Virus record (IMG/VR): IMGVR_UViG_3300043467_002020 | Reading direction: 5' to 3' (one strand) | Source of the DNA: an uncultured virus (IMG/VR IMGVR_UViG_3300043467_002020) | Taxonomy: Duplodnaviria; Heunggongvirae; Uroviricota; Caudoviricetes | Length of the DNA stretch: 64,000 bases | In this document: positions 15,637 through 57,014 of the stretch, one piece after another | How positions within the stretch are numbered: the stretch's first letter is position 1 | How the letters are laid out: the number at the start of each line of letters is the position of its first letter | Notes under the pieces: generated by a model | The model's database searches: none | What the model was told of the DNA's origin: nothing | Seen by the model: only the letters and a program-made list of their open reading frames with translations | Made by a program: the position numbers and the translations under genes

Positions 15637-15671
15637 AAACTATCACATAATTAACCGACTCTATGCAACTA
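15637..15671 (-). promoter_or_regulatory. putative late promoter (TAGTTGCAT-N20-TAGTTT), leaderless
   Basis: motif shared with the sheath, protease and capsid upstream regions; the -10 lies 7 nt before the ATG. Confidence 0.45.
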
Positions 15672-22839: not shown

Positions 22840-23039
22840 TAGTTTTTGTGCATTTTGTTGAGGCGGAGTATTTCTGCCCTGAGCTCGTTGTTCTCATTTA
22901 GAGCTCTCTCGGCAACAGCCTTCCAATATGCGGAGTCCGCTATGTGCTTGTCCATGATGTCCAATATCTTCGGACAGTCATTCTTGGAGACCCTAGCCAC
23001 TTGTAGTAGATGTCTGTATACCTGTTCTTGTTGGTCCAT
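22839..23039 (-). CDS. small coiled-coil hypothetical protein
   Basis: fills the gap with translational coupling; GAGG RBS. Confidence 0.6.
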   Translation of the reverse strand: MDQQEQVYRHLLQVARVSKNDCPKILDIMDKHIADSAYWKAVAERALNENNELRAEILRLNKMHKN

Positions 23040-23040
23040 A

Positions 23041-31741: not shown

Positions 31742-34700
31742 ATGCCATCAGAATTGTTTGAATATAAGTCGTCTACGCTCGGGCACTCCGACTCCATCAA
31801 TTTGGATGAAGCGCAGGGAATTGTCGAATGCTTCGTGGCTGGCATCGGCAACAAGGACTCTGTGGGCGACATCGTTGCCACTGGAGCATTCACGAAGAGC
31901 CTCCAACGCCGTAAGCCGCGCGTTGTCTGGGGACATAGTTGGAACGACCCCATCGGTAAGGTCCTGGAGATTTACGAAGTTCCGAACACAGACAACCGCC
32001 TTCCCATGAAGATGAAGATGGCCGGAATTGGTGGCCTATTTGCTCGCGTTCAGTTTAATCTCAATTCGGAAAAAGGCCGAGAGGCCTTCGCTATGGTTGC
32101 TTTCTTTGGCGAGGAGCAGGAATGGTCGATTGGTTACAAGACACTTCGAGCTCAGTTTGACCAGAAATCCCAAGCAAATATCATTTATGAACTTGAGTTA
32201 TATGAGGTATCTCCGGTTCTGCATGGCGCAAACCAGCTAACTGGGACTATTTCCGTTAAGTCCGAAGAGTTGTCCGGTGGAATCTTGATGTCCATGATGA
32301 ACGAAGAAGACCCAATTGACAAGGCAGAGATAGAAAAGCAGCTTGCTGCAATTTTGGGCGCAAAAGTATCTTTAATGGAAGTTAACGACGAAGAGATTAC
32401 GTTTGCGCGAAGAATGGACAACGGAGAAGTTGGCCGCTACAAGTGTGGATTCAGCAATAATCGCGGACATTATATGTTCGGTGCGCCGCGCCCCATTGTT
32501 GTAATGCCCGCGCGTAAGCCCATTGCTCCTGTAAGCGCAATGCCAATGGCGATGCCAGGTATGCCCCCAAATGAGCCACAAAGAATTGTTCGGCCTTCTC
32601 AAATGCCATCAATCCCAGTTGCTATTAAGCCAGGCGAAAACGGCAACCAGATAGTTCCTTTGCCACCAGTGCAATACGAAAACGATAACGGGAGTCGATT
32701 TGACCCCAACAATCTCGACCAAGAAGAAGTAGACCTCAGGGATGCTCTTTTAAAAATCGTAAAGCGTCACGGAAAGTTCAACGAAGATTCCGAGGGAGTG
32801 TGGGCGGCATATACTCCTGCTGCACAAAATGAAGTTGCCGGAATCGGCGTCAAGTGTTCAAACTGCGTCTTCTATCAGGGTGGAAGCGCCTGCAAGATAA
32901 TCGACATGGAAGTAGAGCCTGAAGGCAAGTGCCGTTTTGCTGTCATCCCAAAGGGTGTTGTCAAGGGAGCTGGCTCAAAGGCATACGAACTCGACGAGGA
33001 ATTTGCCGAAGAAGATTACGTTGCTGACCTCGAGGTAAAATACCCCGGAGAATTGGCAATTGCAGGACTTCGCAAGGTAGTCGGCAAGCGCAGAAAAAAG
33101 CGCCGGAGCTTTAAGTTCTTAAGTGAATTCGGTTCCAAAAACGAAGATTTCGACGATAAGCCATATTTGCTTCCCGTTGTTCCTCAGTTTGCGTTTCAAG
33201 TGAAGCAGATTCTTGACCCAATCTTCGACTATCACGGCGTTGATTCTTTCGTCGACACAAACGGCATCTTCATGACCTCTGGCGTTACCTACGAATTGAT
33301 TGAGGCAGTCGACAATGCAGTCGCAAACTTAAAAAAAAAATCCTTAAGTGAAAACAACCTAGAGTGGAAAGCAGCCGGGTATCGCCTCGGCAGAGCTATT
33401 AGTGGCCGTTTAACTGACCGCCCAAACATAGGCGGAGGTCGTTCTGCAGGACGTTTCTTCACGTCAATCGGTGCGGAAGACTTTGACCCATTTACCGCAC
33501 GCGACGCGAACCTTAACGGCATTGTTGGAGAGGGACTATTCCTGCGTGGGGTTCCGCTTGCCGTAACTGACCCGACGCCAGATGGCCCTGGCTCTATCCG
33601 TAACCCCAAGCCATCCCCCAGGCAGGTTGCGAAGCCGAATGCTGCAGCAATTTCTCGAGCGGAAATTCAAGTAGAGAAAATAACAAAACCTAAAGAGCGC
33701 CAGAAACTTTCCTCTGGAAGCGAGCTTGTAAATCTTCCGCGAATAGACGACCCGGATGTTGATTCGGCAGAAAAATATGGCGCAGCAGAGTCGCAGCGTG
33801 ACGAGCTTCAAGGCGTTTTGGATGGAGCATCAGATTCTGACCAAATAAAGAAGTTAAAGAAGGCCATTGCCGAAATCGACAAATACATGGAACGTGTCGA
33901 GAAGATGGCCGAAGGCGAAATGGCCGATACTGAAAAGCCAAAGAAAAAGCCCGTAAAAAAGCAGGTAGAAAAGACCAGCCAAGGTCTTTCAAGCGGCTAC
34001 GGCAAGTACCTAAATAAGCCCGAGGCGAAGCGGACAGGCGATGAGAAGGCCAAATATGATGGAGTGCTTTCGTCTGGCACACTAAATGTTGGGGACGAAA
34101 TCCCCGAAGATTCCCCACTCGTGCAGGAAATGTACGATGAGATGACGAAGCAAATTCTTGATGCGCTTCTGGGGCTTTCGCTCAATCCTGATTCAAAAAC
34201 GTGGCAGTTTCCATGGCGGAACCCCGAAGCTTATGCAAGAAATCCAACAAGCGGTAGAATTTATCAGGGCACAAACCAAATGCTCCTACAGCTAACTGCC
34301 AGTGCTCGCGGGTACCAGACTTCCAGGTGGGCTGGGGCTGGGCAATGGAAAAAACGTGGCGGGAAGATTAGTGCGAAAGACCTATCTACCAAGGGCGTAA
34401 AAGTTCTAGTACCGCAACGAGGCAGAGAATCTGTTGACCTAAATGGAAATATTGTTTCTGGTCCAAAAACATACAAAGTTATGGAAGTCTTCAACGTCGC
34501 TGAAGTCAAGGGGCTCCCAGAGAAGTTTTATGCTCTTGAAGATGTAGAGATAAATAAAGAACAGAGACTTCAGGACCTAGAAACAGTCATTCAGGAGATA
34601 GGGCCAGCATTCGTTGAATCGAAGGGCTCGCAGGCGTTCTATCGGCCAGGCACCGACAAAATTCATATGCCTGCATTTGAACAATTTAAAGACGCTTTGG

Positions 34701-37700
34701 CTTTTTACGGAACTGCCATGCATGAAACAGTCCACTGGACATCACATCCGAGCCGACTCGATAGAAAATTAGGGAAAACGTTTGGTGATGAAGGCTACGC
34801 CTTTGAAGAGCTGATTGCAGAAATCGGCTCAGCATTCGCAATGGGCTCAATGGGTCTCGAGCCCGTAATTCGCGAAGACCATATTTTGTATCTGAACGCA
34901 TGGATGAAGAAGCTACAGTCAGACCCAACTGCGATTCATAGGGCGATTCTTCAGGCTCAACAGGCAAATGATTACCTGCTCAATCGCTCGGCAACAATGC
35001 GCCGTTTGGCTGGAATTCCAGACGATGAACGCAAGGGCAAGATAGATACCTGGCTGGAAGTTCCAAATATTGCGGGATACGAAGACAGCCCACTTATCCC
35101 GCCGAGTAGGCCCATTTCTGGTTTCATCGAAGACATGCTTGATTTGGACCAATTTGATGAAAATCCAGATGCCCAGATGGCTCGGTTAATGATTCCGAAT
35201 CCAGACGGGGAACTCTCTCGCGACGAAAAAATAATTCGTGCTTCTGAGTTTATCGGTGACGTCGGAAAGAAGAGTCGCGATGGCTCTGTTATAGGTGCTG
35301 ACGGACTTTCAAGCGGCAAGGTAACTGGACCAATCAAGGGCGCAAAAGATGGCGTTCCCGAGGTCAAGCGCAGCGACAGGTCTATTTCTTACAGAAGAGT
35401 GTTTAAGCTCAAGGTTGAGCCAACTGCTGAACAGAGAGACATTCTTGACTTAGTGATTAATCTGGTCAGAAACAAAGACCCGAAAGTGTTGAGCGTTCTT
35501 GCTGGTGCAGGAACCGGGAAAACAACTTCCTTAAAAAATGTTTCATGGGTTTTAGAGAGAGAATTCAACGTGCCTTCCAAGGGCGAGGAAAGGGTTGAGC
35601 ATCTAAAGTATCTTACCGATAGATATGGCGTCTCTTTTGACGGAATGAATGACGCAGCAATCAACGATGCTGTGAAAGAACTCGCAGAAAAATACAAAAT
35701 GGGTGACATGTATTATGCTGTATTTGGTGTCAAGAATCAGCTCGAGGCAGAGGTGCAGTTCCCGGGAAATACAGGAATTGCAACAACCTCAAAGATTTGG
35801 TACTACTCCCTCACTCTTGGTCAGGGTGATAAGAAATTTGGAAAAAATTTAAGGAGAAAAATCCAAGCTGGCATCTTAGAGAGAGATGGTGAAAAAAGGT
35901 TTGGGAAAAAGAAGAATCCAAAGTTCATAAGCGCGGAGAAAACGCCAGATGAGCCGCCAATGATTCCGTACGACTTTAGTGGCGTGACTTTTGATGGAGA
36001 TACGGTGACCGTATCTGGAAAGAGGCCTGGGTTCAAGGAACTTGGCTGGCAACGTCTCGACGATGGGGCAGATTGGGTCGATTTCCTAAAACTCAAAGAA
36101 CGGTCAGACAAAATAACGTTCACAAGAGGGGACGTTGAACTCGAGGGTTTCAAGCTTCCAAATGGCGCAGAAGTTACGGTCGAGGAATTTGGTGACCTTT
36201 TCAACAAAGCAATGCGCAGGTGGACGCTTTCTGTAGACGAAAAAACATCAAAGAAAATGTTCTTGATGTCAGAACTCGAAAAAGAAGGCCTTGAGAGCGC
36301 GAAAGGGCAAAAGAAGATAGCTCGCGGAGAAATTAGTCCCGTTGATGCCACTTTCGCGGAACAAGAAATTCCCGACGAGTGGATAGGCATGCTTCAGGGG
36401 GCCGTCGACAAAATGCTCGATGGAGATTCAAATCTTCTTCTTCATCGTGACGCCGGGCCAAAGGTATGGATGTTAACCGACCCCGACCTCCGTACGGACC
36501 CTGGCTTGGTTGGGCATGCTGGAACATCGTCAATTAAAAACAAAACAATTCCTAAATCTTATGAAGTTGGCGGAACTTACGAAATTGATGGTGAAGAGTG
36601 GATTGTGACAAGCGTGAAGCCCAACAAAGGCAACACGCAAATGGCAAAACTTTCTAAAAAATTTGCCACAAAAGATAAACCTTTAGCTGCATTCTTTGTT
36701 GACGAAGCTCAAGACTCAAACCCAATTATTGAAAAAGTTCTTCTTGATAATAGAAAAAACCTTCCAATAATTGTTGTCGGAGATGACCGTCAGGGAGTAT
36801 TTGCATTCAATGATGCAAAAAATATTCTTTCCTCACTCGAGCCAGACTACGAACTGGAGATAACACAGTCTTTCCGCTATGGAAGCAATGTGGCTCACCT
36901 CGGAAACCTTGTTTTGGCTCTACAAAACCTATACCTGACAAAGCAGGGGGTCAAACAACCGCCGTGGAAACACGTCAAGGGCGAAGCACAAGGCGTTGTT
37001 TATAAAAACTTTGACGACCTCCTTCCAGAAAAAAATAGGGTTCTCAAAGATTTGCCGGAACTATCGGAAGCTGAGAGAAGAGAAAAAATTCTTTTTATTG
37101 AGAACACTTACTCTACTCCAGATAGAAAAATTGATATAGCTGATTTGCCGCGTAAAGAGCAGGACAAGGCATTGCTCGCTCTACGTGATGAGTTAGTTCT
37201 GCCCAAGGCTGGCGTAATAGTTGATGCTGCTGAGGAAATCAAAAAAGGCAACCTGCCATCTATGATTCTCACTAGGTCTAATAGACAAATTATCAATGAG
37301 GCTCAGGGATTTCTTATGCAGTTCCTGTTATCACCAAAAGGAAAAGACAAAAACGGCAATTCGATAATGCCAGAAATTGTCATACCCGCGAAAAAACATA
37401 CGCAGATGGCCGCATTTGCCGAGCACCTGTTGTACATAATGTTGCCAGAAGCCTCGAAAAAAGAATACGACAAGAAGCGTAACGGCAGACCACCGGAGTC
37501 TTCAATCATAGGACCCGTATGGAATATCGGTCAGCTAAAAAGAAAAGTTAATCAATCTCAATATTCTCAGCTGACAACTCTTTTTAGGCTCACCCAGCAG
37601 CCCGACCCCAATGACCCATCTGGATTACCGCTGGGTGCAAAAGGATTGCTAAGGCTACTAAATGGAACCAGTAGATATGTAACAGATGACAAGGGGAAGA

Positions 37701-40483
37701 AGACCCTTGTGAACATCCCTCCGGTAATGATTCCCGAACGAGAGACCCTTGAACTGCCGGCATTTGCTGTCAGCCCAGAACAAATTAAAAAAATAGCATC
37801 TCACAAAACTGTAAAAACAAATGTTAGACAAGGTGAAACAGGGCAAGATAATCAACTTGAAAAAATTGAAATACTCCCATCTCTCAACTCAAAAATGGTT
37901 CATGGCGTTTATGGTCAGCTCGAAATAGAAGGCGGTGGACCAACCAAGCCAGGAAAGGCGACTGGTCGCATATTCATAACCGGGGATGGTGTTGATACGG
38001 GTAGGCCAACAATTCTTCCAAATGGCGTTGAAAAACCAATTGAGGGTCGCAGGGGTAATGGCCGCTATCGCCGGGATATGGAAAAAATCATTGAGCGCCT
38101 CGGACTAGGAGAAAAAGTAAAATTAGGCAATGAATTAGCAACACAAAGAGCGGGAGCTCAAAGGCGTTCTCATGACGGTTTTATTATCGATGCTGGTTCT
38201 TTGGATGAAAACGCAAAAATACTTACACAGATTGCCTCTGAACTTCGTGAATCTGCACGGGAAGTTGGCGGTGACGTAGAAATAACTACAGCCCAACTCG
38301 CCAAGGGGCGTGAATCGCGTTTCGTGGTTTTGGCTGAAGACTTCATGAACCCATCCGAGGTAATGGTTGACAAGCCCCAAGGAGAGACGGCCGTCTCTTG
38401 GATGGAAGAAACAAACCTCGTCTACGTTGCCTTAACAAGAGCGCAAGAGATGATTGACCCAGGTTCTTCTGTATTTGAGAGTTATCTTGCCGATGGAGTC
38501 ACGGCCGACCAGCGAAGAGGAATAGAAGAGGCCGTCAAGCGTGGGGATATACCTGAAGAGATAAGTAAGGGCGCATTCGCTGATGGGAAAATAGCCCTCC
38601 CAGACAAGTACGACAAACTTAATCGAGGCATTACGCCAAGTAAAGACAAAGAAAATGAGCCAGTAGGAGAAATTGAAGTAGTTGAGGACGTAGAAGGACT
38701 CAATGAAGACGAGGTCGACATACCGGAATCGCCAGATGTAGAAATAGTTGAAAGCGAAGATGAAGCTGATTCAATCCTTGACAAGAGAGACGAAGAGCGC
38801 GTTCTTGATATCGGGGGCGAAGGTGACCCGGAAGACACAGGCCCCCCATCGATGAGTTTGTCAAGTGGAGCGGGTAGTGGCCCCAAAAATACACCAACTG
38901 GTCGCAGCGGCAGACTCAACAGAAGAGGGTCGTCGGGTGGAAGTAGAATTTACGATGGCAGCGGAAGCGCACAAGAAATTGCTGGCATTCGCTTTAGGGG
39001 TGACTTAAAGTCGCCAAAAGAGCAAGCCAAGTTGAATTTCTCAATGAACGTGTGGAAGCGTTTCCGTGACGTCGGAATAGCAATAGATGTGGACGACGAT
39101 GCATCAGAAACTGAAGCACGCAAATCTAAAAATACTGCAACAATAAAGTCCGTTGGTGCGGAGATGAAAAAGCGTCAAAACCTCGTTCGTGTCGGCAGAG
39201 TAGGCGACAATAACGTGAATGATGCTCCCTCGGCACTGACATGGATGCTGTCCGTGGACAAACTTGCTGAAACTCTAAGAGTTCCGACCGAATTTGTTTC
39301 CGCCAATAGGGACGGGAAGAGTTCGCTACAGTGGACTCAGACTCGCCCAGTTACACGCAAAGAGCTTGCAACACTTCTTGGCTTGAATGGTCCAGATACG
39401 GCAGCCCTGGAAGCGCCGGACGCCGGCATCAACCATGATGCTGTCAGACTGCTTATTGCCGAACTCGGCAAGCAACCAGAGCTGAGCGCATGGCGATACT
39501 TTTCCCCAGTTAGCGCCGAAGAAGTAGCAAAGATTATTCCGCCGTCACCCAGTGGTGATGTTGAAGGATTCTCAAAGATAGACCTCGCTATGGAGAATGT
39601 TGGTCGTGCAAATATGCGTGACAGGTTCATAATCGAGACCTTCGGCAAGGACGCGTTCCCTCATTGGTTTGACCCGGAAGAGGGCGAGTCCATAACGCCA
39701 GACGAATATAGCAAGCTTGGCGAAATTAGCGCAGTGTCCAAATTCCGCGCAACTGGTCGCTTTGACCCAGAGGACCCGACCAAGGGCGACTCAGAGGCAG
39801 AATATGACCTCTACGGAGAGCTGATTGATGGTGTTCTGCCTAGCACGGAACCAGATGGTGAGATAATTAGTGGAGATAAGACAAGCAGAGAAGATTTTGA
39901 ATTAGAGAAACTTCTGGAATATCTAGGAATAGATAGAAAAGAATGGAAAACAACTCTCAAAGAACGAATGTCTGCGGCTTTCGGAATGGATGCCGTCGGA
40001 GCCTGGGACGAATGGAAGAAAGACGGAATACCAACGGCCACGGTCGCTCACATGATTAGAACTGGACTAATACCTAACGCCGCTTCAGTTTGGAAAGACG
40101 CGTCCACGGGCGAACGATTTGACAACGAACTCAAGAAATCAAAATACGCCGTGTATGAAGCATTGAACGAATTTATTGACAAGAGTTTTCCTGATAGCAA
40201 GCTCAATAGCCAAGCCAGTCGAAACAAGATAACTGGAAAGACTGATATGGGTGTTGCGTTAAGAGATGCTGCGACGGCAAAAGGCTCAGCATGGTCTCCG
40301 AAAAAAGGAAACGAAGCAAGATTCTCTGACTCAGAATTGCAATCAATAGTTGACAGATTCAATGAAGTGTTCGGCACCAATCACACCATCGATGACATAT
40401 TTAGCGCCGAACAACTCAGAACTGCCGCAGAAAGAATTGAGTCTGGCGAAACCTTGTCTGGCAAAAAGAGAACAGTAAGTTAG
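31742..40483 (+). CDS. 2913-aa polyvalent protein: HK97-type prohead protease + Cys4 (HiPIP-like) module + ArdC-N/zincin metallopeptidase + UvrD-like SF1 helicase + unknown C-terminal domain
   Basis: protease 'DSVGDIV..GAF','H.WNDPIG','WSIGY','LYEVSPVLHGAN'; ArdC 'W..PW...NPTSGRIYQGTN','VFNVAEV'; HETVH 34721-34735 and 'YAFEELIAEIGS'; AGAGTGKT 35501, DEAQD 36701, VGDDRQ, QSFRYG, AKGRE, YVALTRA 38423. Confidence 0.9.
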   Translation: MPSELFEYKSSTLGHSDSINLDEAQGIVECFVAGIGNKDSVGDIVATGAFTKSLQRRKPRVVWGHSWNDPIGKVLEIYEVPNTDNRLPMKMKMAGIGGLFARVQFNLNSEKGREAFAMVAFFGEEQEWSIGYKTLRAQFDQKSQANIIYELELYEVSPVLHGANQLTGTISVKSEELSGGILMSMMNEEDPIDKAEIEKQLAAILGAKVSLMEVNDEEITFARRMDNGEVGRYKCGFSNNRGHYMFGAPRPIVVMPARKPIAPVSAMPMAMPGMPPNEPQRIVRPSQMPSIPVAIKPGENGNQIVPLPPVQYENDNGSRFDPNNLDQEEVDLRDALLKIVKRHGKFNEDSEGVWAAYTPAAQNEVAGIGVKCSNCVFYQGGSACKIIDMEVEPEGKCRFAVIPKGVVKGAGSKAYELDEEFAEEDYVADLEVKYPGELAIAGLRKVVGKRRKKRRSFKFLSEFGSKNEDFDDKPYLLPVVPQFAFQVKQILDPIFDYHGVDSFVDTNGIFMTSGVTYELIEAVDNAVANLKKKSLSENNLEWKAAGYRLGRAISGRLTDRPNIGGGRSAGRFFTSIGAEDFDPFTARDANLNGIVGEGLFLRGVPLAVTDPTPDGPGSIRNPKPSPRQVAKPNAAAISRAEIQVEKITKPKERQKLSSGSELVNLPRIDDPDVDSAEKYGAAESQRDELQGVLDGASDSDQIKKLKKAIAEIDKYMERVEKMAEGEMADTEKPKKKPVKKQVEKTSQGLSSGYGKYLNKPEAKRTGDEKAKYDGVLSSGTLNVGDEIPEDSPLVQEMYDEMTKQILDALLGLSLNPDSKTWQFPWRNPEAYARNPTSGRIYQGTNQMLLQLTASARGYQTSRWAGAGQWKKRGGKISAKDLSTKGVKVLVPQRGRESVDLNGNIVSGPKTYKVMEVFNVAEVKGLPEKFYALEDVEINKEQRLQDLETVIQEIGPAFVESKGSQAFYRPGTDKIHMPAFEQFKDALAFYGTAMHETVHWTSHPSRLDRKLGKTFGDEGYAFEELIAEIGSAFAMGSMGLEPVIREDHILYLNAWMKKLQSDPTAIHRAILQAQQANDYLLNRSATMRRLAGIPDDERKGKIDTWLEVPNIAGYEDSPLIPPSRPISGFIEDMLDLDQFDENPDAQMARLMIPNPDGELSRDEKIIRASEFIGDVGKKSRDGSVIGADGLSSGKVTGPIKGAKDGVPEVKRSDRSISYRRVFKLKVEPTAEQRDILDLVINLVRNKDPKVLSVLAGAGTGKTTSLKNVSWVLEREFNVPSKGEERVEHLKYLTDRYGVSFDGMNDAAINDAVKELAEKYKMGDMYYAVFGVKNQLEAEVQFPGNTGIATTSKIWYYSLTLGQGDKKFGKNLRRKIQAGILERDGEKRFGKKKNPKFISAEKTPDEPPMIPYDFSGVTFDGDTVTVSGKRPGFKELGWQRLDDGADWVDFLKLKERSDKITFTRGDVELEGFKLPNGAEVTVEEFGDLFNKAMRRWTLSVDEKTSKKMFLMSELEKEGLESAKGQKKIARGEISPVDATFAEQEIPDEWIGMLQGAVDKMLDGDSNLLLHRDAGPKVWMLTDPDLRTDPGLVGHAGTSSIKNKTIPKSYEVGGTYEIDGEEWIVTSVKPNKGNTQMAKLSKKFATKDKPLAAFFVDEAQDSNPIIEKVLLDNRKNLPIIVVGDDRQGVFAFNDAKNILSSLEPDYELEITQSFRYGSNVAHLGNLVLALQNLYLTKQGVKQPPWKHVKGEAQGVVYKNFDDLLPEKNRVLKDLPELSEAERREKILFIENTYSTPDRKIDIADLPRKEQDKALLALRDELVLPKAGVIVDAAEEIKKGNLPSMILTRSNRQIINEAQGFLMQFLLSPKGKDKNGNSIMPEIVIPAKKHTQMAAFAEHLLYIMLPEASKKEYDKKRNGRPPESSIIGPVWNIGQLKRKVNQSQYSQLTTLFRLTQQPDPNDPSGLPLGAKGLLRLLNGTSRYVTDDKGKKTLVNIPPVMIPERETLELPAFAVSPEQIKKIASHKTVKTNVRQGETGQDNQLEKIEILPSLNSKMVHGVYGQLEIEGGGPTKPGKATGRIFITGDGVDTGRPTILPNGVEKPIEGRRGNGRYRRDMEKIIERLGLGEKVKLGNELATQRAGAQRRSHDGFIIDAGSLDENAKILTQIASELRESAREVGGDVEITTAQLAKGRESRFVVLAEDFMNPSEVMVDKPQGETAVSWMEETNLVYVALTRAQEMIDPGSSVFESYLADGVTADQRRGIEEAVKRGDIPEEISKGAFADGKIALPDKYDKLNRGITPSKDKENEPVGEIEVVEDVEGLNEDEVDIPESPDVEIVESEDEADSILDKRDEERVLDIGGEGDPEDTGPPSMSLSSGAGSGPKNTPTGRSGRLNRRGSSGGSRIYDGSGSAQEIAGIRFRGDLKSPKEQAKLNFSMNVWKRFRDVGIAIDVDDDASETEARKSKNTATIKSVGAEMKKRQNLVRVGRVGDNNVNDAPSALTWMLSVDKLAETLRVPTEFVSANRDGKSSLQWTQTRPVTRKELATLLGLNGPDTAALEAPDAGINHDAVRLLIAELGKQPELSAWRYFSPVSAEEVAKIIPPSPSGDVEGFSKIDLAMENVGRANMRDRFIIETFGKDAFPHWFDPEEGESITPDEYSKLGEISAVSKFRATGRFDPEDPTKGDSEAEYDLYGELIDGVLPSTEPDGEIISGDKTSREDFELEKLLEYLGIDRKEWKTTLKERMSAAFGMDAVGAWDEWKKDGIPTATVAHMIRTGLIPNAASVWKDASTGERFDNELKKSKYAVYEALNEFIDKSFPDSKLNSQASRNKITGKTDMGVALRDAATAKGSAWSPKKGNEARFSDSELQSIVDRFNEVFGTNHTIDDIFSAEQLRTAAERIESGETLSGKKRTVS

Positions 40484-40613
40484 AGATGCCAAAAAATCAA
40501 AGAGAAGTATTGGGTGTTCCTAATTCACTCACGTATAGCGTGATAGGTTATAATTTAAATACATTATTGGTTAATGGTCTACCCGGTCATTTCCCTGCAC
40601 TAACGGGAGCTGT

Positions 40614-42329: not shown

Positions 42330-42342
42330 GAGGGGGCGCCAC

Positions 42343-45300
42343 GTGGCGAATACCCCAGCAATGCGGGAAAGAGTAATAGTTTCAGCACAACTCATGGTGC
42401 CGTCTTCGTGCTGCGGCGACTTCAATGAAAAGGCAGTTCTTTTCAGGCAGTCCATTAACTCGTCTCTGTCAACTGGAAAACTTCAGGCCGAGCTTGTCAC
42501 AAAAACTATTACAGAAGGTTTTGGCATACGCGTAAAAGCCGATGTCGATACCGACGGGAAAAAACGAGAATTCACCGGAGACAGTCGACCTGGTGTCGAA
42601 TCCAATGAATTTGGATATAGATGGGAAACGGGAGGAAAGTGGGAACCCGGTTCGAGGCTTGTCTTGAGCCCTCCTTTTCAATCTCGCGAGGGAATGGGCA
42701 CAGAGCCCAACTTCGGCTGGTTGCCGCCGGAAGATAAGTCAACGACAACATTTGAAGAAATGCTTCGGGCCTATAGGGAAAAGCCAAAAATAAAGTTAAG
42801 CAAATACAAGGTAAATCCAAGGACAGATGAGGTCATACCTGATTCTGAAAAAATAATTGACCCATTTGGGATGGCGGCAGGGCTTACCTACGAAGAAAAA
42901 CAACAAGCCTTACGAAAAAATGAAAAAAACACCCTAGAAGAAAAAAGGTTACCGGGCCGTAGTCTTGAATCTAGAGTTCCAGGAGGCTCGCTCCTTTCGC
43001 GAGCTGCAGCCGTGTTTGGCATCCTTCGTGACGAAAACAATAAATTTAGATGTCCTCCGGGAACGCCTGCAGCAAATCAATTTACAGACGCCACTGGAGC
43101 GAACTGTTTTGGATTTAGTGCATCAAAATTCTCTCGCTTTGCAGCGCGTAAGGCGGCCGAGCTCACTGCCCAAGGCGAATATACGGGATTGCGCCAAAAC
43201 GCGGCAGACTTCTTCAGATGGATACATGGCCCCAGGTCGATGAGAGACCCTGCCATTGCGGAAAAGTGCGCCTACTGGGGAGTCAAAATACCGGAATGGC
43301 GAAACATTGCCGTCCCAGAGAATCTACGTTTATTTAAAAACGGAGCCATTCGCGGTCAGGATGATATCGCCCGTCAAAAGGCCGAAGTTGTTCGTATGTA
43401 CGACGCATTGGGGATTGACGCCGACGACCCAGATGCTCCAGTTAAGGCGCTTAAAAAACTAAAAGAAATGCATTCGCAAACCGGCGGCACTGCTGGATGG
43501 GATGTACAAGTTCTTGATGTGTCCGGAAAAGGGGACGAGCTATTAACAGATGTAGAAATAAAAGAATTTGTAAAAACAAGACTCTCATCTACACCTGGCT
43601 GGAACAGACTCTCTAGTAAAGAACAAGAAAGACTATTGAAGTCTGATTTTGAGCGATACAAAACCACCCAGAGAGCAATGCTTGAAACCTTGCTTGACCA
43701 ATTCATGACAGACCCAGGCAGCATGCGGGGGGTTGGTCGAATTGAATTCAACTTCATGACAGATGATGAAGCTGGCACGTCCTTCTATAGAACGCAAAAT
43801 GGGATGAAAACGGCAATACACATCAACATGGGGATGATTAGTGCCAATCAAGAAACCATGCTTCCAAACATGGGCGGAGACGAGCGTTTAGCAATATCCG
43901 CCATTGGTGCTAGAAGCGAAGCAGAAGGACGACTTGCGGTTGCTGATTTCATGGTAAATGCAGACCATACGGCCAGAGGCATGGCCGGCCTCCTTGATGG
44001 CGTGTATGGATTTTCAAGTCATATCATGCTCCATGAAATAGCTCACCACAAACAATCTCAAGTATTCCTGGACAAAATACAGAAAGAAATTACAGAAAAA
44101 GGTTTCATTTCCGTTGCGGTCAGAAATAAAAAAGGAGCTGTTGTTGGCGAGCGTGAAGTTAAGAACATTAATAGCCTGACAGGCTCCGACCTTATGTCAA
44201 TAATGACTGGCATTGCTGACTCAATCAATATTGAATCGCTAAATGACGCAATGACCAGAATCCAGGCAATTGCTCCATTGGCTGGGGCATACCCGCGTGA
44301 TGGATACGCTGTAGGTTCGGAAGTATGGGCGCTGGAAGCATCTGCCGAGATTTGGGCACTACGCGAACGCGGAATTATCTTTGGCGACGATGTTGACGCT
44401 GCTCTTGAGTGGATGGACAACATGTCCTTCTCTGTGGCGGCAAGAGACCGAACGGCAAGTGATGACACAGATGGTCAGAGAAAATTAGATGACGTATTTG
44501 ATATTCCCGCGGACCCCGTTGACCCAGGTTCAGTATCAGATGAAGACATTGATGCGCGAGCCACCGCAGCAATTCGTGAAGAAATCAAGAGATTCAAAAC
44601 GGAATTCTCCAAATTTTCAGAAGATGAAATGTTTGAAGAAGCAGCAATCATTGGCTCTCAGCGTGACGTTAGTGCCAGACAAGTCGAATCACTAGAGGCA
44701 ATAGAGATAGACCCGTCACTTCCTGAGGATGAGCGCGACGCCAGAGAGCTACTCAAGGCTCAAGCGGTAAAGGACGCCAAGAGAGAGTTTGATTTTCACA
44801 CAAAACGATACGACGAGGCGTCAAAAATTTGGCGCAAGAAGTTCGGCATAGGCGCTAGTGGTGAAAAAAAGAGATTTGAAGATGAGGTGTACTCTATCCG
44901 TAAGCGGGAGGGCCTGCTCGATTCTAAAGAAATGGCAGATATTGCTCGCAGGGCCGACCTCGATGATTTGCGCGACAGAGTTAAGTCAATGCCCGAAAAG
45001 AAAACTATCAGCCTCTTGGTTGACGACAAGGTAAAGCTCTCAAAGCTCGACCCCTCATCTGAAGAATTCAAGAAATTGGCCGATGAGATTGAAGTCATTA
45101 GAGAACAGTACGTAGAGAACATGAAGGCCGCAGGAGATACGCGGACTAAAGCGCAAATCAAAAAAGACCTTGATAAAAAAGTTAATGACACCATAAATCC
45201 ACCATCAAAGCCTAAAAAGAAATTCAAGAGCGCTGACGAAGCTCGCAAGCACGGCGCTAAAGAGCGCGCTCGAGTAAAGGCAACGCCCGAACAGAAAAAG

Positions 45301-48300
45301 GCCATGAAGGAGCTCGGAGATGTGGCGGAATCAGATGTAGGGATGCTTCTTGACCCGGTTTCGCAAACAAGAGCCGGCCGAGCAATAAATAAGCGCAACG
45401 CACGCCTCAAAAAGCTCGGCCTAAAGGTAGATAAAACATCTTCTGAAGAAGGAGATGTCGTTCAGCAGGTAGAAAATCTACTCATACCGACGATGGAGGC
45501 AATCGATGGGACGTCGGTAGGCGAACCATTTGAGATGGAAGCAATAATTGACTTCAAACCAGGTGATGTTGGCTACCAAAGAAGTCAGGGCAAAGAAGTC
45601 AGCCTGGACCAGTTTATCTCCGGAAGGGTCATAACAAGCAGAACCAAAAAGACGGAAATGCCGGCACGCGGAAAGCGTGACCCCAAGTCCGGAACAACCA
45701 AGCGTCGCGTTATCCTTTCCGTGCGCGAAAAAGACCGCGGACTATTCCCGACTACGGGAGGGGATTCGGAGCAGAAATTCGTTGCTCCGCCAGGCAGGAT
45801 AAGAATTACCAATATAGACAACGACGGAACTATCCGTGCAGAAATTTCATATCAAAAAGATACCGTAGAAGTCGTCGACTCATTGGCAGAAAATCTCTCC
45901 AAGAACACGACAGACGCAATTTGGGCTAGAAGTCACGGCAAAAAAATCCAAGCCATGGCGGACAAGTATGTTACCAAGCGACGCTCGTCTGGAAAGGCGG
46001 GCCCTGGACCACGAAGTGATTCTGACGAGTCTGCCAGCACCAAGAGTAAGGCAACTTTAGATAAGGTCACTGATGCCGGTGGCTCATTTGCCGACTACGA
46101 TGATGCTCCCGCCGGGCCAAGCCTCTCCTCTGGAGCCACCAGGCCCGATGGAGTACTAGGGAAGCCATCTACGCGTCAGCAAAGAACAGAGTCGCGTACA
46201 GCAGCAAGCTCCTCGATTATCAGAAACATAAAAGACGTACTAGGCGGTGGCGGGAAAGATGGAACCATCTCTCGTGGAGACATCCATCCAGAGGTGGCGA
46301 AATTTATAGCCGACACGCCAGAAGAAGAAATCATAGCCAAGGCAGCTGAAACCGCCTACAGGATGCATGAGGGTTTCGATAGAAGAGTGCGTGTTAGAGC
46401 AACAGATTCAGACATAGACAAACTCGCATCAGGCGCTGGTGTGCGTTCCCCATTTTCTGGGTCATCAGCGGATAGTTCTCGTCCAACAAGAAGAGCGCAG
46501 AGACTTGCACAAATGGGACCAGAAGAACGTTCCGAAAGACTTTCTTCAGGCAGAACGATAGATACAAGCGGGAACCTGGCCGAACGCAGGCGTCAAGAAG
46601 GGGACATCGCAAAAAAGGCTTTGGACGTTTTCAACGATGTCATCGATAGCGGCACAAATATCAACGACATGTCTGATGATGAGATATCCAAGAAGTTTGG
46701 CGGAGTAGTAAAGCGTTCTGCTAGAAGTTCGATTAGCGAGAAGGACTCAAATCTCTACGAAGTTGATGATGTCCATACAGCCGTAGCAATGATGATGCTT
46801 GGACACCATGTGGAAGTTAAAGAACAGGACATACGTCTAACTGAACAAGCACAGAAGGTCTTTGAAAAAGAAGTTAAAAAAGTTGCAAAAAATCACATAA
46901 AAGACAATCATCCAAAATGGCGCTCATTCCAAGAAGACTACGCAAAGAGAAATCCAGACGCAGACCTAGATGACCCCGAGACACGTAAATCCATGGAGGG
47001 GGAGTATGTCGGGAATTATCAGGCCGACCTATGCTCCCTATACAACCCTGCCAACAACCTCATGTGTTCAGGGCATATTGGTATTGACAGAGAAAAAATG
47101 CCTCAGACCAATGGGCGCTCATCTGGCCACAAGACCAAGGCAATCCGCGCACTAAAGAATGGCGTTGCGGCAGGCAAATGGGAACCACTAAAGGACGCCA
47201 ACGATAACTCGCTCGTGTCCAGAGACAGGGGACTTGAAATAGAGTTTGCAGACGAACTGGACAAGGCAGTAAAAAAACAAAATGCTAAACGCGCAGAACA
47301 AGGCAAGCCCCCGGTATCTGATGAAGAAATATCTGGAATCCTGTACGGAATCATCGCCGATAAGCACTCATTAAAGAACGAAATGGGCGGAAAGACGGCG
47401 GCGGAGCACAGGGAAGATTCTTTTTCTAAACTTTCAGATAGAGCGAAAGAGTGGCTTTATGAAAATACTAACTGGAATGACACTGAGGTAAACCTTGAAA
47501 CACCATTCATTGATTGGCTGAATGGGCTAATTAAGGTTTCGGACCCAGAAAATGGTCCTGCAGTTAGACGTCGCGATGTTGACCCAAGCGAGTATGCGCC
47601 TTCACAGCAACAAATAGTGGCAAGCAAGGCAGACGGAACCGCTCAAACAATTCAAGAAAAAGCAATTGAAGTAGCAGAAAAAATAAGAAAAGATAATCCC
47701 AAGATATCTGACAAAGATTTCAGAGATAAATATTTAGAAGAAATGAAAAAAGAATGGTTTATGCAACCAATTCTTACAACAAAAGACTCGTACATTCTTG
47801 ACGGACACCACAGATGGGCTGGAATAGTCGTCGGGAATAGGTCTTTATCAGAAGAGCTTCAACTGCCACTCTCAGCAAACGAAGTACAAACAGACATTAT
47901 CGAAGGATTGACTCTAGGTAAGGTTTTCCAAGATGCATTTGGAATCAAGGAAGCTCGCCTAGGGGCAGAAAATCCATGGGAAGTCGGCGAAATTGAGGAT
48001 ATGAGCGCTGCCGAGTTTGCCGACATCGCCAAGGACTTGACAGATAATGCCCCAAGCTTAATCGACGCAAAATACGAACAAGGGGATTACATCCAACTTG
48101 GCTCAGTGGGTCTCACAAACAATCCAGATTATGCAGCAAGGTCCAAGGAAAGGCAAGCTACTGCCGCTCGGGATGAAACTAGAAAAATAGCCAGCGATGT
48201 TGTTGGAAAGATTCGCGCGCGCGGCAAGCCCCTGCACGAGTACACCCCCGAAGAGCTAAAAGAAGATTTTGGTGACTCGATAAAGCCAAGCGACCTGAAG

Positions 48301-50883
48301 CCTTTATTCACTAGCTCGGACCCCAAAGACATGGCCGTTTACAAGGTCGACAACGTCGGACAGGCAATAGCGTTAATGGCCCTTGGTCATCACGTCAGCT
48401 TGGAATACTCTTCCGATGAAGCCATTGCCAAAAAACAAAAAGAGTCTTTGAATTTTGCAAAAACACTTCAAGAAGAATTTTTTAAAGATATTAAAAAAAT
48501 GGGCGAAGACGTTATTGCAAATAACGAAAAAGAATGGCTTGATTTTAAAGAAAAAGAAGAGAAAACAATTATCAAGAACGGCGGAGACCCTGCTGCTCTT
48601 CAGGAAGTGATAAAAAAGAATTTCCTGAACAAATTTACCGACAAATACAAAACAAATCTTTGCAATTTTTACGATGGAGACGAAAACGTCTTCTGTGGGA
48701 ATAATCTTGGTATTCCACGAGCAAAAATGCCACAGGCTGGTGGGCGCTTAGTTGGAGCGAATACTCGCGGAGCAGAGCTAGGTCTCGCTGGAGAGATTCC
48801 TCTCAAAAAAGTGACACACAAGCACATGGACCCTTATGGCATAAAGAAGTGGGAAGGCGAAGATAGATTTCAAGAAATTATGGCCAGGGTCAAAAAAGGC
48901 CCGGAATCGGCTTCCGCAATATCGGACGAAGATAGACAGTTCGTCATGGATAATCTGAATTGGGACGTTACTGAAATTGACGGAACGGGGATGATTAAAG
49001 AAATAATAAGAGGAAAACTGGGTGACGATGCAATAAAAGAAAATATTCCTGTCGACCCGTCCGAATACACTCCATCCCAACAGGAATTAGATGCCGTGCA
49101 AACTGACGGAATGCACGAATCACTAAAGGCTGCCGTCGAGCACTATACCAAAACGCTTACGGAAGGCGGAAAATACAAGAGGGGTACTAAAGAGTTTACC
49201 GATGCCTTAGTTCAAGCCCTAAAAGACGACGATGACACTGCTGCCAAGGCCTCTGGAAGACAGTTCGGCGCTCAGGGCATGATGGACCCTATTTTGGCAA
49301 CCTCGGACAAATACCTACTCGACGGACATCATAGATGGAGTGCTATTACCGTTTACAACGGAGAAGTAGACGACGACCAGAAAGTCCCCCTACATGTTGA
49401 CGAAGTTCAGACAGACATTGTAAGCGGTCTTACTTTAACAAAAGTACTTCAAAGAGGATTGGGACTCAAGGACGCAAAATTAACTGGAGCTGTCGATTTC
49501 GAGGAAGGCGACATTAAGAAAGTTGAAATTGGGGAAAGAGCCAGAGTGCTGAAGGAAATCAATGACAGTATGGATTCGCTTGCGGCCGACATTTATGCTG
49601 AAGGCGACTTTATTGAAATAGATTCAGTTGGCATGAGGAACAATCCTCAATACGCAGAAGAGATTCTAATGCGACAGCAAGATGCGCTGTCTAGGCCTGC
49701 TAAGCGAACGGCGAATGCAAGCCAATCTGCAGATTCACCAGATGCCGATACAGCCGACACTCTTTCTAGTGGCAGAACAAGCGTTGGTAACAGGGCGAGA
49801 CTTCGCTCCTCAACAGGCGGTGTCGGCGTGTCTTCCAGTCGCGAGTCAGAAGTTGAACCTGGAAGCACTGTTGGACTGTCCTCGGAAAACTACGCACGCG
49901 AATACTATTCACGCATCGGCATCCCGGATTCCGTAGACGGAGATTTGCTCCCAGTAAGCGGATATCTCGTGCATAAGTCCCACATGGATAAAAAGAAACA
50001 AGACGTAACGAAGGGTCGTTCTGGAAATCTAAGACCAGATGCTGTTTTTGAGATTGGCGACGAAGATGTCGTTGGAGATGGATTGACTGCCCTTGGCGAT
50101 ATTGAGATAGTTTTGCGGCCCGGTGTCTCAGAAAGAACCGCTTATGGACGCGGAAACTCAATCAGTTCTGCCCATAGGCCTGTGAGATTAAACTCAAGAA
50201 ATCGTGAAGATGTGGCGGACGCATTACTCAACTCCGATGGAGTCAGCGCTGACAGCAACCGACAAGATGCGTTCATCAATATGATTTCAGCATCGTTAAA
50301 TAACGATTTCTCAAATGTCAATGCCACACGCGGCAAAAACGGCAAAATGCCAAACTCATTTGAATCCAAACTCCCCGAGGGCTCTTCTCGTGAGCCTTTC
50401 GAAGCGCAAATACTTGGTGGATTTGACATTTCTGACGTAGAGCAAATAAACATACCTTTTAAAAGACTTGAAGCAGCTTCTGCAAAAGAAGACATCGGCG
50501 ATGTAGTGAATACTAAAACAATCGCAGACAGACTACGTTCTGCCGGATTTTCCCCCGAAGAAATTGAGTACTTTTACTCAATCGGTGGAGGTCAACTCAA
50601 CACGGAAAGTATGGCCATGTTGAGAAATTACAGAGCTTCACAAAAGATGAAAACTGATTTAGCTGGCCGTGGGTTTAACAATGTTAAATTTGCCCACCCA
50701 ACCGGATTCAATATTGAAGACCCGCGCTCTCACTCGAAAAGCCCTATTGGCGGAGATTCGGCCGAAGCTACACTCATTAGAGCAATAAGCGATGAAATTA
50801 TAAAAGCGGCAAAAGAATTGTTAGATGACATGAGAAAAACAAACAAGCCCACCCTCACTACGACAGCAGGGAGCTTGATGTGA
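42343..50883 (+). CDS. 2846-aa polyvalent protein: zincin (HEIAH) + degenerate VIP2-like ART + two tandem ParB-like units + DUF3626-like domain
   Basis: GAGGGGG RBS before GTG; HEIAH 44032-44046; DGHHRW at 47800 and 49321; 'EIVLRPGVSERT...GNS...FEAQILGGF...DVEQI'. Confidence 0.8.
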   Translation: MANTPAMRERVIVSAQLMVPSSCCGDFNEKAVLFRQSINSSLSTGKLQAELVTKTITEGFGIRVKADVDTDGKKREFTGDSRPGVESNEFGYRWETGGKWEPGSRLVLSPPFQSREGMGTEPNFGWLPPEDKSTTTFEEMLRAYREKPKIKLSKYKVNPRTDEVIPDSEKIIDPFGMAAGLTYEEKQQALRKNEKNTLEEKRLPGRSLESRVPGGSLLSRAAAVFGILRDENNKFRCPPGTPAANQFTDATGANCFGFSASKFSRFAARKAAELTAQGEYTGLRQNAADFFRWIHGPRSMRDPAIAEKCAYWGVKIPEWRNIAVPENLRLFKNGAIRGQDDIARQKAEVVRMYDALGIDADDPDAPVKALKKLKEMHSQTGGTAGWDVQVLDVSGKGDELLTDVEIKEFVKTRLSSTPGWNRLSSKEQERLLKSDFERYKTTQRAMLETLLDQFMTDPGSMRGVGRIEFNFMTDDEAGTSFYRTQNGMKTAIHINMGMISANQETMLPNMGGDERLAISAIGARSEAEGRLAVADFMVNADHTARGMAGLLDGVYGFSSHIMLHEIAHHKQSQVFLDKIQKEITEKGFISVAVRNKKGAVVGEREVKNINSLTGSDLMSIMTGIADSINIESLNDAMTRIQAIAPLAGAYPRDGYAVGSEVWALEASAEIWALRERGIIFGDDVDAALEWMDNMSFSVAARDRTASDDTDGQRKLDDVFDIPADPVDPGSVSDEDIDARATAAIREEIKRFKTEFSKFSEDEMFEEAAIIGSQRDVSARQVESLEAIEIDPSLPEDERDARELLKAQAVKDAKREFDFHTKRYDEASKIWRKKFGIGASGEKKRFEDEVYSIRKREGLLDSKEMADIARRADLDDLRDRVKSMPEKKTISLLVDDKVKLSKLDPSSEEFKKLADEIEVIREQYVENMKAAGDTRTKAQIKKDLDKKVNDTINPPSKPKKKFKSADEARKHGAKERARVKATPEQKKAMKELGDVAESDVGMLLDPVSQTRAGRAINKRNARLKKLGLKVDKTSSEEGDVVQQVENLLIPTMEAIDGTSVGEPFEMEAIIDFKPGDVGYQRSQGKEVSLDQFISGRVITSRTKKTEMPARGKRDPKSGTTKRRVILSVREKDRGLFPTTGGDSEQKFVAPPGRIRITNIDNDGTIRAEISYQKDTVEVVDSLAENLSKNTTDAIWARSHGKKIQAMADKYVTKRRSSGKAGPGPRSDSDESASTKSKATLDKVTDAGGSFADYDDAPAGPSLSSGATRPDGVLGKPSTRQQRTESRTAASSSIIRNIKDVLGGGGKDGTISRGDIHPEVAKFIADTPEEEIIAKAAETAYRMHEGFDRRVRVRATDSDIDKLASGAGVRSPFSGSSADSSRPTRRAQRLAQMGPEERSERLSSGRTIDTSGNLAERRRQEGDIAKKALDVFNDVIDSGTNINDMSDDEISKKFGGVVKRSARSSISEKDSNLYEVDDVHTAVAMMMLGHHVEVKEQDIRLTEQAQKVFEKEVKKVAKNHIKDNHPKWRSFQEDYAKRNPDADLDDPETRKSMEGEYVGNYQADLCSLYNPANNLMCSGHIGIDREKMPQTNGRSSGHKTKAIRALKNGVAAGKWEPLKDANDNSLVSRDRGLEIEFADELDKAVKKQNAKRAEQGKPPVSDEEISGILYGIIADKHSLKNEMGGKTAAEHREDSFSKLSDRAKEWLYENTNWNDTEVNLETPFIDWLNGLIKVSDPENGPAVRRRDVDPSEYAPSQQQIVASKADGTAQTIQEKAIEVAEKIRKDNPKISDKDFRDKYLEEMKKEWFMQPILTTKDSYILDGHHRWAGIVVGNRSLSEELQLPLSANEVQTDIIEGLTLGKVFQDAFGIKEARLGAENPWEVGEIEDMSAAEFADIAKDLTDNAPSLIDAKYEQGDYIQLGSVGLTNNPDYAARSKERQATAARDETRKIASDVVGKIRARGKPLHEYTPEELKEDFGDSIKPSDLKPLFTSSDPKDMAVYKVDNVGQAIALMALGHHVSLEYSSDEAIAKKQKESLNFAKTLQEEFFKDIKKMGEDVIANNEKEWLDFKEKEEKTIIKNGGDPAALQEVIKKNFLNKFTDKYKTNLCNFYDGDENVFCGNNLGIPRAKMPQAGGRLVGANTRGAELGLAGEIPLKKVTHKHMDPYGIKKWEGEDRFQEIMARVKKGPESASAISDEDRQFVMDNLNWDVTEIDGTGMIKEIIRGKLGDDAIKENIPVDPSEYTPSQQELDAVQTDGMHESLKAAVEHYTKTLTEGGKYKRGTKEFTDALVQALKDDDDTAAKASGRQFGAQGMMDPILATSDKYLLDGHHRWSAITVYNGEVDDDQKVPLHVDEVQTDIVSGLTLTKVLQRGLGLKDAKLTGAVDFEEGDIKKVEIGERARVLKEINDSMDSLAADIYAEGDFIEIDSVGMRNNPQYAEEILMRQQDALSRPAKRTANASQSADSPDADTADTLSSGRTSVGNRARLRSSTGGVGVSSSRESEVEPGSTVGLSSENYAREYYSRIGIPDSVDGDLLPVSGYLVHKSHMDKKKQDVTKGRSGNLRPDAVFEIGDEDVVGDGLTALGDIEIVLRPGVSERTAYGRGNSISSAHRPVRLNSRNREDVADALLNSDGVSADSNRQDAFINMISASLNNDFSNVNATRGKNGKMPNSFESKLPEGSSREPFEAQILGGFDISDVEQINIPFKRLEAASAKEDIGDVVNTKTIADRLRSAGFSPEEIEYFYSIGGGQLNTESMAMLRNYRASQKMKTDLAGRGFNNVKFAHPTGFNIEDPRSHSKSPIGGDSAEATLIRAISDEIIKAAKELLDDMRKTNKPTLTTTAGSLM

Positions 50884-54055: not shown

Positions 54056-54744
54056 AAATTGGTTTCATAAAAGACGTATTTAGTGGAATGCCGCACGTTA
54101 TGGCATCGATGGAAAATGAAGTTATTCACGTAAAATCGATTACTGAATTTGGTAAATCAATTATTGAAGATTTTGATTTTGATGAAAAAAACATTGGTGC
54201 AAACGTGCCTGTTGGTTGCGTTTTTACTGGATTTTTTGCTGACAAAAATAATCTCCAAGTGCCAGAAAAAGAAAACCAGGTTAAGCAAGAAAATTTTACA
54301 TATGCCAGAAAATCAATAAATGACATATCGCATCGAAAAATTAATGCGATTGGACTAGAAATGAATAAGTTCACAAACAGCACTAACAAAATTAATGCTA
54401 TTGCATTCAAAGCTGAATCATTCAAGAATTCTGTGCGCAGGTCTAACTTCATCCGAAGAATACATAGCGGGAAGATAATTTTTAACGAAAAAATGGGGCG
54501 GATTGAACTAAATCCAAAGTTTGCCTTTAGCAGTATCGAGAAAGAAGTTCTTAATTCTTCTTTCGGCAAGAGTTTCATTAGAAAATCAGCCGATAAAGAA
54601 ATAATGCAAAGTAGCGATAAGCGTAGAGTCGCACGCAGGGCAAAGGTCCTTCTTGGGCTAGCAGGCGGAGAACGTTCTCCTGAAAAACAACAAATTTCAG
54701 AACGAATACAAAAAGCCCGCAGGCAGGTCAAAAATGGCAAGTAA
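54052..54744 (+). CDS. hypothetical protein
   Basis: ATGA coupling; GGAGG RBS. Confidence 0.7.
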   Translation: MKIGFIKDVFSGMPHVMASMENEVIHVKSITEFGKSIIEDFDFDEKNIGANVPVGCVFTGFFADKNNLQVPEKENQVKQENFTYARKSINDISHRKINAIGLEMNKFTNSTNKINAIAFKAESFKNSVRRSNFIRRIHSGKIIFNEKMGRIELNPKFAFSSIEKEVLNSSFGKSFIRKSADKEIMQSSDKRRVARRAKVLLGLAGGERSPEKQQISERIQKARRQVKNGK

Positions 54745-56982: not shown

Positions 56983-57014
56983 TATCGACACATTTATGTG
57001 GGAAGATTGTGTAT

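Follow-up and report, generated by a model that had tools for sequence, protein, structure and literature searches.

In a 64,000-nt stretch of DNA from an uncultured virus (IMG/VR record IMGVR_UViG_3300043467_002020; hereafter the window), we found that the tetrapeptide LSSG is a selected and position-conserved junction signal between the modules of two giant proteins encoded in the head gene module, namely, protein A (2913 aa; 31742..40483, plus strand) and protein B (2846 aa; 42343..50883, plus strand). The motif is also present in the tape measure protein (TMP; 1633 aa; 9947..14848, minus strand). Proteolysis is the best-supported mechanism, and it is quite probable when the readings that invoke a phage protease, a metallopeptidase, and a host protease are taken jointly. 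On sequence grounds, we moderately favor LSSG as an inter-module endopeptidase site, most likely cut by the S78 prohead protease of A.

LSSG at the module boundaries of proteins A and B

The first-pass annotation of this DNA had reported five copies of LSSG in A and three in B, and all eight proved to be in frame and placed as reported. These copies start at residues 656 (33707..33718), 749 (33986..33997), 776 (34067..34078), 1189 (35306..35317), and 2373 (38858..38869) of A, and at residues 1261 (46123..46134), 1400 (46540..46551), and 2474 (49762..49773) of B, all on the plus strand; B also has a degenerate LASG at residue 1361 (46423..46434, plus strand). All four codon sets that had been quoted for the motif are correct, and its Ser residues alternate between TCN and AGY codons, so the conservation is at the protein level. 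The earlier estimate of well under one expected copy also holds, since amino acid composition predicts 0.086 copies in A and 0.084 in B (approximately 0.17 together) compared to the eight observed. In the shuffling check that had been suggested, three copies were never exceeded in 3000 global shuffles or in 3000 block shuffles, which were confined to 15-aa or 30-aa blocks and thus kept local composition (maximum: two to three). LSSG is the commonest tetrapeptide of each giant, with eight copies compared to four for the runner-up. Among the 40 open reading frames (ORFs) examined (49 of at least 150 aa, minus nine shadow ORFs located inside or opposite larger genes), it occurs only in A, B, and the TMP (two copies) and is absent from the other 37. 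Six-frame translation of the window revealed seven further copies, all in non-coding frames.

The positions of these sites are conserved in alignments of 21 A-type sequences (38-94% identity) and 24 B-type sequences. In A, the motif is present at A656, which closes the N-terminal protease-bearing module, in 18 of the 21 sequences and at A749 in 16. All 21 have it at A776, directly before ArdC-N (LASG and FSSG variants counted), at A1189, between the zincin and helicase modules (LASG counted), and at A2373, ahead of the C-terminal module, where core identity reaches 0.99 compared to 0.32 in the flanks. For B, the corresponding counts are 24/24 at B1261 (FSSG counted), 9/24 at B1361, 23/24 at B1400, and 11/24 at B2474. 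Core identity ranges from 0.81 to 0.99 compared to 0.32-0.58 in the flanks for all window sites except B2474 (0.47 compared to 0.27). The flanks, defined as 20 residues on each side of the core, are far less conserved and also hold insertions and deletions. Substitutions within the sites keep to the pattern (VSSG, LASG, and FSSG).

Homologs keep the motif outside of folded domains. Among 208 sites in 13 high-density homologs, only one falls within a Pfam envelope compared to 33.1 expected (p ~9e-15). In these homologs, the median spacing between sites is 126 residues, and one pair of sites always encloses both ArdC-N and the zincin. The first site is found at a median position of residue 621, and the protease module is therefore a bounded unit. 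The flanks have a hydrophobic fraction of 0.188 at 1294 sites, compared to 0.275 at random positions. The claim that every copy lies in a low-complexity linker applies to six of the eight window sites, where flank hydrophobicity is at or below the 13th percentile, but not to A656 and A776. In an AlphaFold2 model of A640-1240 with a mean predicted local distance difference test (pLDDT) score of 69, the stretch around A656 is disordered, A749 and A1189 are at the edges of disordered linkers (approximately 80 aa of linker precede A1189), and A776 is in a coil with a pLDDT of approximately 80.

The sites also bracket recognizable modules. Protein A consists of an S78 protease, an unannotated region, an ArdC-N/zincin pair, a UvrD-type helicase, and an unannotated C-terminal module. 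As had been proposed, ArdC-N (A796-887) and the MPTase-PolyVal zincin (A946-1068; E 1.6e-39; HETVH motif at A994), which were identified by Pfam and together span 34127..34945 (plus strand) with no internal site, lie between A776 and A1189. Similarly, the UvrD/SF1-type helicase module (approximately A1229-2237; 35426..38452, plus strand; Pfam UvrD-helicase, AAA_19, and UvrD_C) lies between A1189 and A2373. The unannotated region that separates the protease domain from the first LSSG contains a conserved cysteine cluster at approximately residues 372-395 of A (approximately 32855-32930), in which a CxxC precedes more Cys residues that are nearly invariant; this cluster may be a small zinc-binding element.

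For B, neither Pfam nor NCBIfam gave a match over threshold, nor did a family profile searched against PDB sequences. Two DGHHR motifs (B1820-1824 and B2327-2331; 47800..49335, plus strand), which we take to be a ParB signature, mark a tandemly duplicated ParB-like module. The bracketing of these two motifs by B1400 and B2474 stands, but the label ParB falls under the Pfam threshold, with ParBc_2 at an E of 0.044 and 14.3 bits compared to a cut-off of 23.6. The region B1400-2473 (46540-49761) is a tandem duplication of a module of approximately 530 aa, with halves that are 29% identical (E 1e-66) and one LDGHHRW in each copy. B homologs of approximately 2400 aa have a single copy of this module, bounded by motif sites.

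The first-pass annotation had further suggested testing whether domain gains and losses break at LSSG. We compared the window giants to distant homologs and found that the ends of BLAST high-scoring segment pairs cluster at motif sites: 59% in B and 42% in A are within 30 aa of a motif, compared to 13% and 22% for random positions, respectively. This supports the idea of cassette boundaries. However, the motif is absent from the junction of the tandem duplication in B, near residue 1944 (halves approximately 1400-1944 and 1945-2474). Of the earlier interpretation, a junction signal at gain/loss points and genuine TMP copies are supported, and the motif-free duplication junction speaks against a strict cassette rule.

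Lineage variants and the tape measure protein

We found 174 homologs of the giants (120 A-type and 54 B-type), every one of them metagenomic. LSSG was observed 851 times in the A-type family compared to 11.3 expected and 159 times in the B-type family compared to 4.3 expected, with up to 18 copies in a single protein. A motif word is the top tetrapeptide in 116 of the 120 A-type proteins, in 39 of the 54 B-type proteins, and in 43 of 52 representatives chosen by a crude redundancy reduction; an enriched word is absent in 15 B-type and four A-type proteins. Two main classes could be distinguished. Class 1 has the form [R/K/S]-[L/F]-S-S-G-[R/K/A] (839 and 159 unique contexts). Class 2, found in more distant lineages, reads D-G-F-A-S-R-G or G-L-A-S-[R/S]-[G/S] (149 and 89 contexts). 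Minor words, namely, GFSS, G[L/M]RS, and SISGRM, are used in a few lineages. When anchored on the hydrophobic residue (Phi), these forms have the common core hydrophobic-[S/A]-S. Lineage by lineage, one class (Phi-SSG or G-Phi-A-S-R) is common to the A-type giants, the B-type giants, and the TMP. The sharing of one signal class by three unrelated protein families within each lineage points to a trans-acting reader.

The two TMP copies, at residue 36 (14732..14743, minus strand) and at residue 576 in a Gly-rich stretch (13112..13123, minus strand), had initially been regarded as either chance or the same signal in another ejected protein. To compare them, we used TMPs from nine of 17 loci (52-93% identity), after removal of duplicates and C-terminal fragments. 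At the residue-36 site, eight of the nine homolog rows have K-LSSG-R, and the ninth has R-FASG-Q and comes from a contig whose giant has FSSG as its top word. The second LSSG, in the Gly-rich middle, is present in all eight rows that are long enough. Two G-Phi-A-S lineages have I-G-S-G-L-A-S and A-L-A-S-K in the same N-terminal TMP column; in the Gly-rich middle, G-F-A-S-R occurs twice in one of them and G-F-A-S once in the other. The G[FL]AS counts in the TMPs of these two lineages are three compared to 0.21 expected and one compared to 0.19 expected. The TMP copies are conserved and co-vary with the motif class of the giants; therefore, they are the same signal rather than chance.

Candidate enzymes and alternative explanations

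The junction signal has the general form hydrophobic-[S/A]-S-[G/R], mostly with Arg or Lys beside it, and LSSG is its local form. It is located in exposed linkers between the modules of the giants, which are polyvalent proteins that are probably packaged in the head, and also at two sites of the TMP. Cleavage itself, the enzyme responsible, and the time of the cut (prohead stage or post-ejection) are inferences from the sequences, on which we base the following scheme. The giants would be made as polyproteins and then cut into a protease-bearing N-terminal module, ArdC-N plus zincin, the helicase, the ParB-like block, and others. The enzyme is most likely the S78 prohead protease at the N-terminus of A, and, judging from the aligned capsid site of HK97, the cut may fall at or beside the second Ser (L-S-S|G or L-S|S-G).

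The HK97-type protease that the first-pass annotation had named as a candidate enzyme is the domain that opens protein A. This HK97-type prohead serine protease domain (A27-170; 31820..32251, plus strand) matches Peptidase_S78 (PF04586) at an E of 9.8e-12 and 45.8 bits compared to a cut-off of 21, and is 37-40% identical to annotated capsid maturation proteases of cultured relatives (39% for Gordonia phages). BLASTP of A against HK97 gp4 gave an E of 2e-9 and placed His65 and Ser129 of A opposite His65 and Ser114 of gp4. The two gp4 residues have catalytic roles, and H65 and S129 of A are invariant in 24 aligned sequences, so that the protease domain of A looks intact. Domain searches of the window matched no other protease family, and a search of the S78 protease against PDB sequences gave zero matches. 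The S78 protease heads protein A in 116 of 121 A-type sequences tested. Furthermore, on a quick tree of the protease domain, the motif classes group by clade, requiring 13 changes compared to 31.1 with shuffled labels, and a single supported clade of 21 rows holds the G-Phi-x-S class.

The major capsid protein (449 aa; 55561..56910, plus strand; HK97 fold; Pfam Phage_capsid), which is 38% identical to HK97 gp5, provides a further comparison. HK97 gp5 aligned to the window capsid from residue 166 (HK97 124) and to the capsid of Gordonia phage Chidiebere from residue 182 (HK97 130). We take the gp5 maturation cut to lie at K103|S104, which by these alignments extrapolates to approximately residue 146 of the window capsid, in V-F-S-A (residues 146-149; 55996..56007, plus strand), and to S155|S156 of Chidiebere, where the sequence reads K-D-V-F-S-S-G. 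Every aligned capsid sequence has K-D-[V/I]-[F/Y]-[S/T]-[A/G/S] at this site, which fits a protease accepting hydrophobic and then small residues. Among cultured phages, Chidiebere (L001, capsid residues 154-157) and another Gordonia phage, ScarletRaider (L143), have an exact FSSG at the HK97-equivalent maturation site. We also considered Chidiebere as a cultured model for a polyprotein and rejected it; in its head-module proteins, no junction motif is enriched (GGGG and ARTP are the top words), and the cargo is encoded by separate genes. A locus search with protein P0109 returned no related locus. The sole motif-like site in the window capsid is LSSR at residues 95-98 (55843..55854, plus strand), which is also the best match to the position-specific scoring matrix (PSSM) of the giants; by our count from the alignment, 36 of the 47 unique capsid sequences have this site as L-[S/T]-S.

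The capsid gives moderate support at most to the S78 protease as the reader of the signal, and several observations weigh against it. The window capsid has FSAT rather than LSSG at the HK97-equivalent site, and this site is constant across the motif classes. When a PSSM derived from the giant-protein motif of each lineage was scanned over the cognate capsid, the top match was at the N-terminal boundary region in one of seven lineages, with two more having a top-three match there. The single positive lineage is that of the window, with its LSSR at residues 95-98, and a claim that capsids contain the cognate cargo motif was dropped on this result. The AlphaFold2 model of the capsid (mean pLDDT 43.5) is too poor for placing the delta-domain boundary. 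A prohead protease is not expected to meet the TMP, which assembles with the tail, yet the TMP shares the signal; in the GMRS and SISGRM lineages, the cognate TMP site was found in neither of the two. The clade coherence of the motif class is expected of any inherited trait. The motif-free duplication junction in B also counts on this side, as do the metallopeptidase motifs of the giants described below.

With somewhat long odds, the junction code may be read after ejection, with the protease traveling with the cargo and cutting both giants and the TMP in the host. This possibility would include the re-coding of Phi-SSG to G-Phi-A-S-R by whole lineages in three unrelated protein families. In such a case, a slippery A10 run in gene A may set the ratio of the short protease form to the full-length cargo. 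If true, this would be the bacteriophage counterpart of the polyprotein strategy of eukaryotic viruses. The run consists of ten A at 33331-33340 (plus strand), in residues 530-533 and upstream of the first LSSG. A slip there reaches a stop after three codons in the -1 frame and after one in the +1 frame, which would give a form of approximately 535 aa with the protease-bearing module alone.

Other than the S78 protease, a metallopeptidase of the giants, either the MPTase-PolyVal of A or the HExxH module of B, may read the cleavage site, possibly after ejection into the host; we consider this unlikely, though worth serious attention. A has the MPTase-PolyVal zincin, and B has a nearly invariant HExxH (HEIAH at B564-568; 44032..44046, plus strand) that marks a candidate metallopeptidase module. 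In addition, where the protease-led giant of a lineage lacks an MPTase, the second giant contains a conserved GAQxxAHExxHxxQ, as seen at residues ~590-620 of the second giant ORF in L119, L123, L124, L130, and L132. This module resembles HIMLHEIAHHKQ of B and may represent an unrecognized metallopeptidase family. An ejected reader would explain why the TMP shares the signal. The MPTase has also been proposed to release the domains of polyvalent proteins either while these are still in the head or once they have been injected (Iyer et al., 2017; PMC5512222), according to the parts of that paper used here. On the other hand, PF18818 was not found in any of seven motif-strong lineage records (including G005 and G006), although these are 24-79% complete and such absence is not proof; the same search found it in all three records with A-type giants that served as positive control. 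A protein search did not find the HExxH module of B in G007, G008, and G006, and no known specificity ties zincins to an LSSG-type motif. We had excluded metallopeptidases based on the absence of PF18818, and withdrew this exclusion because the second giant in these lineages has a conserved HExxHxxQ module. Given this module and the HExxH in B, the metallopeptidase explanation stands.

It is less likely still that LSSG is an uncut short linear motif, such as a docking, threading, or hinge element common to proteins that exit through the tail, or else a modification site. The distribution of the motif would suit such a role, since it is found in the TMP and the putative ejected cargo while its canonical form is absent from the capsid, portal, terminase, and sheath proteins. 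Some flanks are also conserved and partly structured, with short strands of pLDDT 59-73 at A1189 and values of approximately 80 at A776. However, a four-residue core with variable flanks, placed in disordered linkers at up to 26 junctions (P0104), is typical of protease sites. No partner is evident, and the median spacing of 126 aa matches the sizes of domains.

Cutting by a host protease, or by another protease acting in tail assembly or after entry, with lineage variants that track the hosts, appears improbable. During tail assembly, the TMPs of T5 and lambda undergo processing by enzymes that the consulted sections of the source (PMC10038345) do not name, and a 1973 title, as cited there, reports host involvement for a T5 tail protein. 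However, L and F variants co-occur in single proteins, and the two main classes divide along one deep and well-supported branch of the phage protease tree. A phage that needed a host enzyme to make up to 26 cuts per protein would also take a risk. Lastly, chance or the composition of low-complexity linkers, which are indeed rich in Ser, Gly, and charged residues, is ruled out for practical purposes by the block shuffles and by site positions that are kept across 21-24 homologs while the flanks vary.

Known systems and the surrounding genes

The S78 reading can be compared to several known systems. The T4 gp21 and phiKZ proteases belong to a different family than S78. As described in the parts of the literature used here, T4 gp21, phiKZ, and SPN3US resemble the window in having one phage protease and a short motif that is shared by head-internal or ejected proteins and repeated within substrates. 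In SPN3US, the prohead protease gp245 recognizes AXE in head and ejection proteins and cuts after it, with a preference for Ser at P1', and 13 of the 14 mapped sites remove N-terminal propeptides (PMC10052503). Those systems mostly cut N-terminal propeptides after Glu, whereas the window has internal junctions with small residues. Its first sites, A656 and B1261, are internal junctions rather than sites that would release N-terminal propeptides. Its S78 protease is also fused to the presumed substrate, and a tail protein bears the motif as well. On the capsid side, the comparison gives LSSR and FSAT in the window, FSSG in Chidiebere, and a positive PSSM result in one of seven lineages. For HK97, the protease domain (gp4) and the capsid (gp5) are homologous to those of the window and K103|S104 maps to Phi-S-small, but gp4 is a stand-alone protein of 225 aa without cargo, unlike giant A. 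TMP processing is known from T5 pb2, which is cut after R1127, and from lambda gpH (PMC10038345). These TMPs are alike in having a defined cut between functional parts; no motif shared with head proteins is reported for them in the sections consulted, whereas the TMP sites described here match and co-vary with the code of the head cargo.

The closest resemblance in protein architecture is to polyvalent proteins, which are giant multi-enzyme proteins with ArdC-N, MPTase-PolyVal, helicase, and ParB-like modules, are encoded among virion genes, and are proposed to enter the host together with the DNA and to be split into units (PMC5512222). The available sections of that paper assign the processing to the MPTase zincin and name no junction motif. 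The window differs from the polyvalent proteins described there in that an S78 protease leads the giant and a four-residue code with lineage variants marks both the junctions and the TMP. Protein A has at least two effector-type domains (ArdC-N, MPTase-PolyVal, and UvrD helicase) beside the protease, and the terminase, portal, and capsid genes surround A and B. In these testable respects, the giants are polyvalent proteins, with putative packaging and delivery. Full-text searches of PMC and bioRxiv, a scope that excludes subscription-only papers, gave no description of the LSSG motif or of a protease-cargo fusion. The idea combines two known themes, namely, polyvalent proteins and prohead-protease motifs.

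If LSSG is a cleavage code, it would provide a sequence rule for module boundaries and for candidate injected anti-defense enzymes in hundreds of giants of uncultured phages that otherwise lack annotation. HK97-type head proteases would then act as polyprotein processors, and a tail protein would share the signal of the head cargo. The motif would also be a natural portable linker for loading foreign proteins into phage capsids and releasing them. With eight defined sites and three candidate enzymes, the 2017 proposal on the processing of polyvalent proteins becomes directly testable.

The window is a myovirus-type phage region with tail genes on the minus strand and a head module on the plus strand. 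The closest cultured relatives are Gordonia and Brevibacterium myoviruses (capsid identity of approximately 47%). Related uncultured viral contigs reach approximately 158 kb, and one record of such length has terminal repeats and is classed as complete. The head module contains, in order, the portal gene (703 aa; 29504..31615; Pfam Phage_portal, E 1.6e-51), giant A, a 571-aa ORF, giant B, five ORFs of unknown function, and the capsid gene. In three records of the G-F-A-S lineage (G002, G003, and G004), the protease-led giant is directly upstream of the capsid gene. This adjacency is the classical order, whereas the window has the second giant and six more ORFs in between. Small ORFs on either side of the capsid gene (54734-55396 and 57009-57830, plus strand) contain DUF3721 (two stretches) and DUF6321 domains.

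On the minus strand, the TMP gene follows those for the sheath (16189-17652), tube (15669-16172), and tail assembly chaperone (15078-15629), and the terminase gene is located at 27847-29160. A PAPS-reductase-like gene (21700-22839) lies between two ParB-like genes (21153-21710 and 23041-23922), all on the minus strand. Genes for a RuvC-like resolvase, an exonuclease, and an Erf-like annealing protein adjoin this cluster (21153-23922). A 180-aa ORF (6090-6632, minus strand) contains collagen-like tail-fiber repeats, and many PHROG tail-fiber families match its residues ~105-170.

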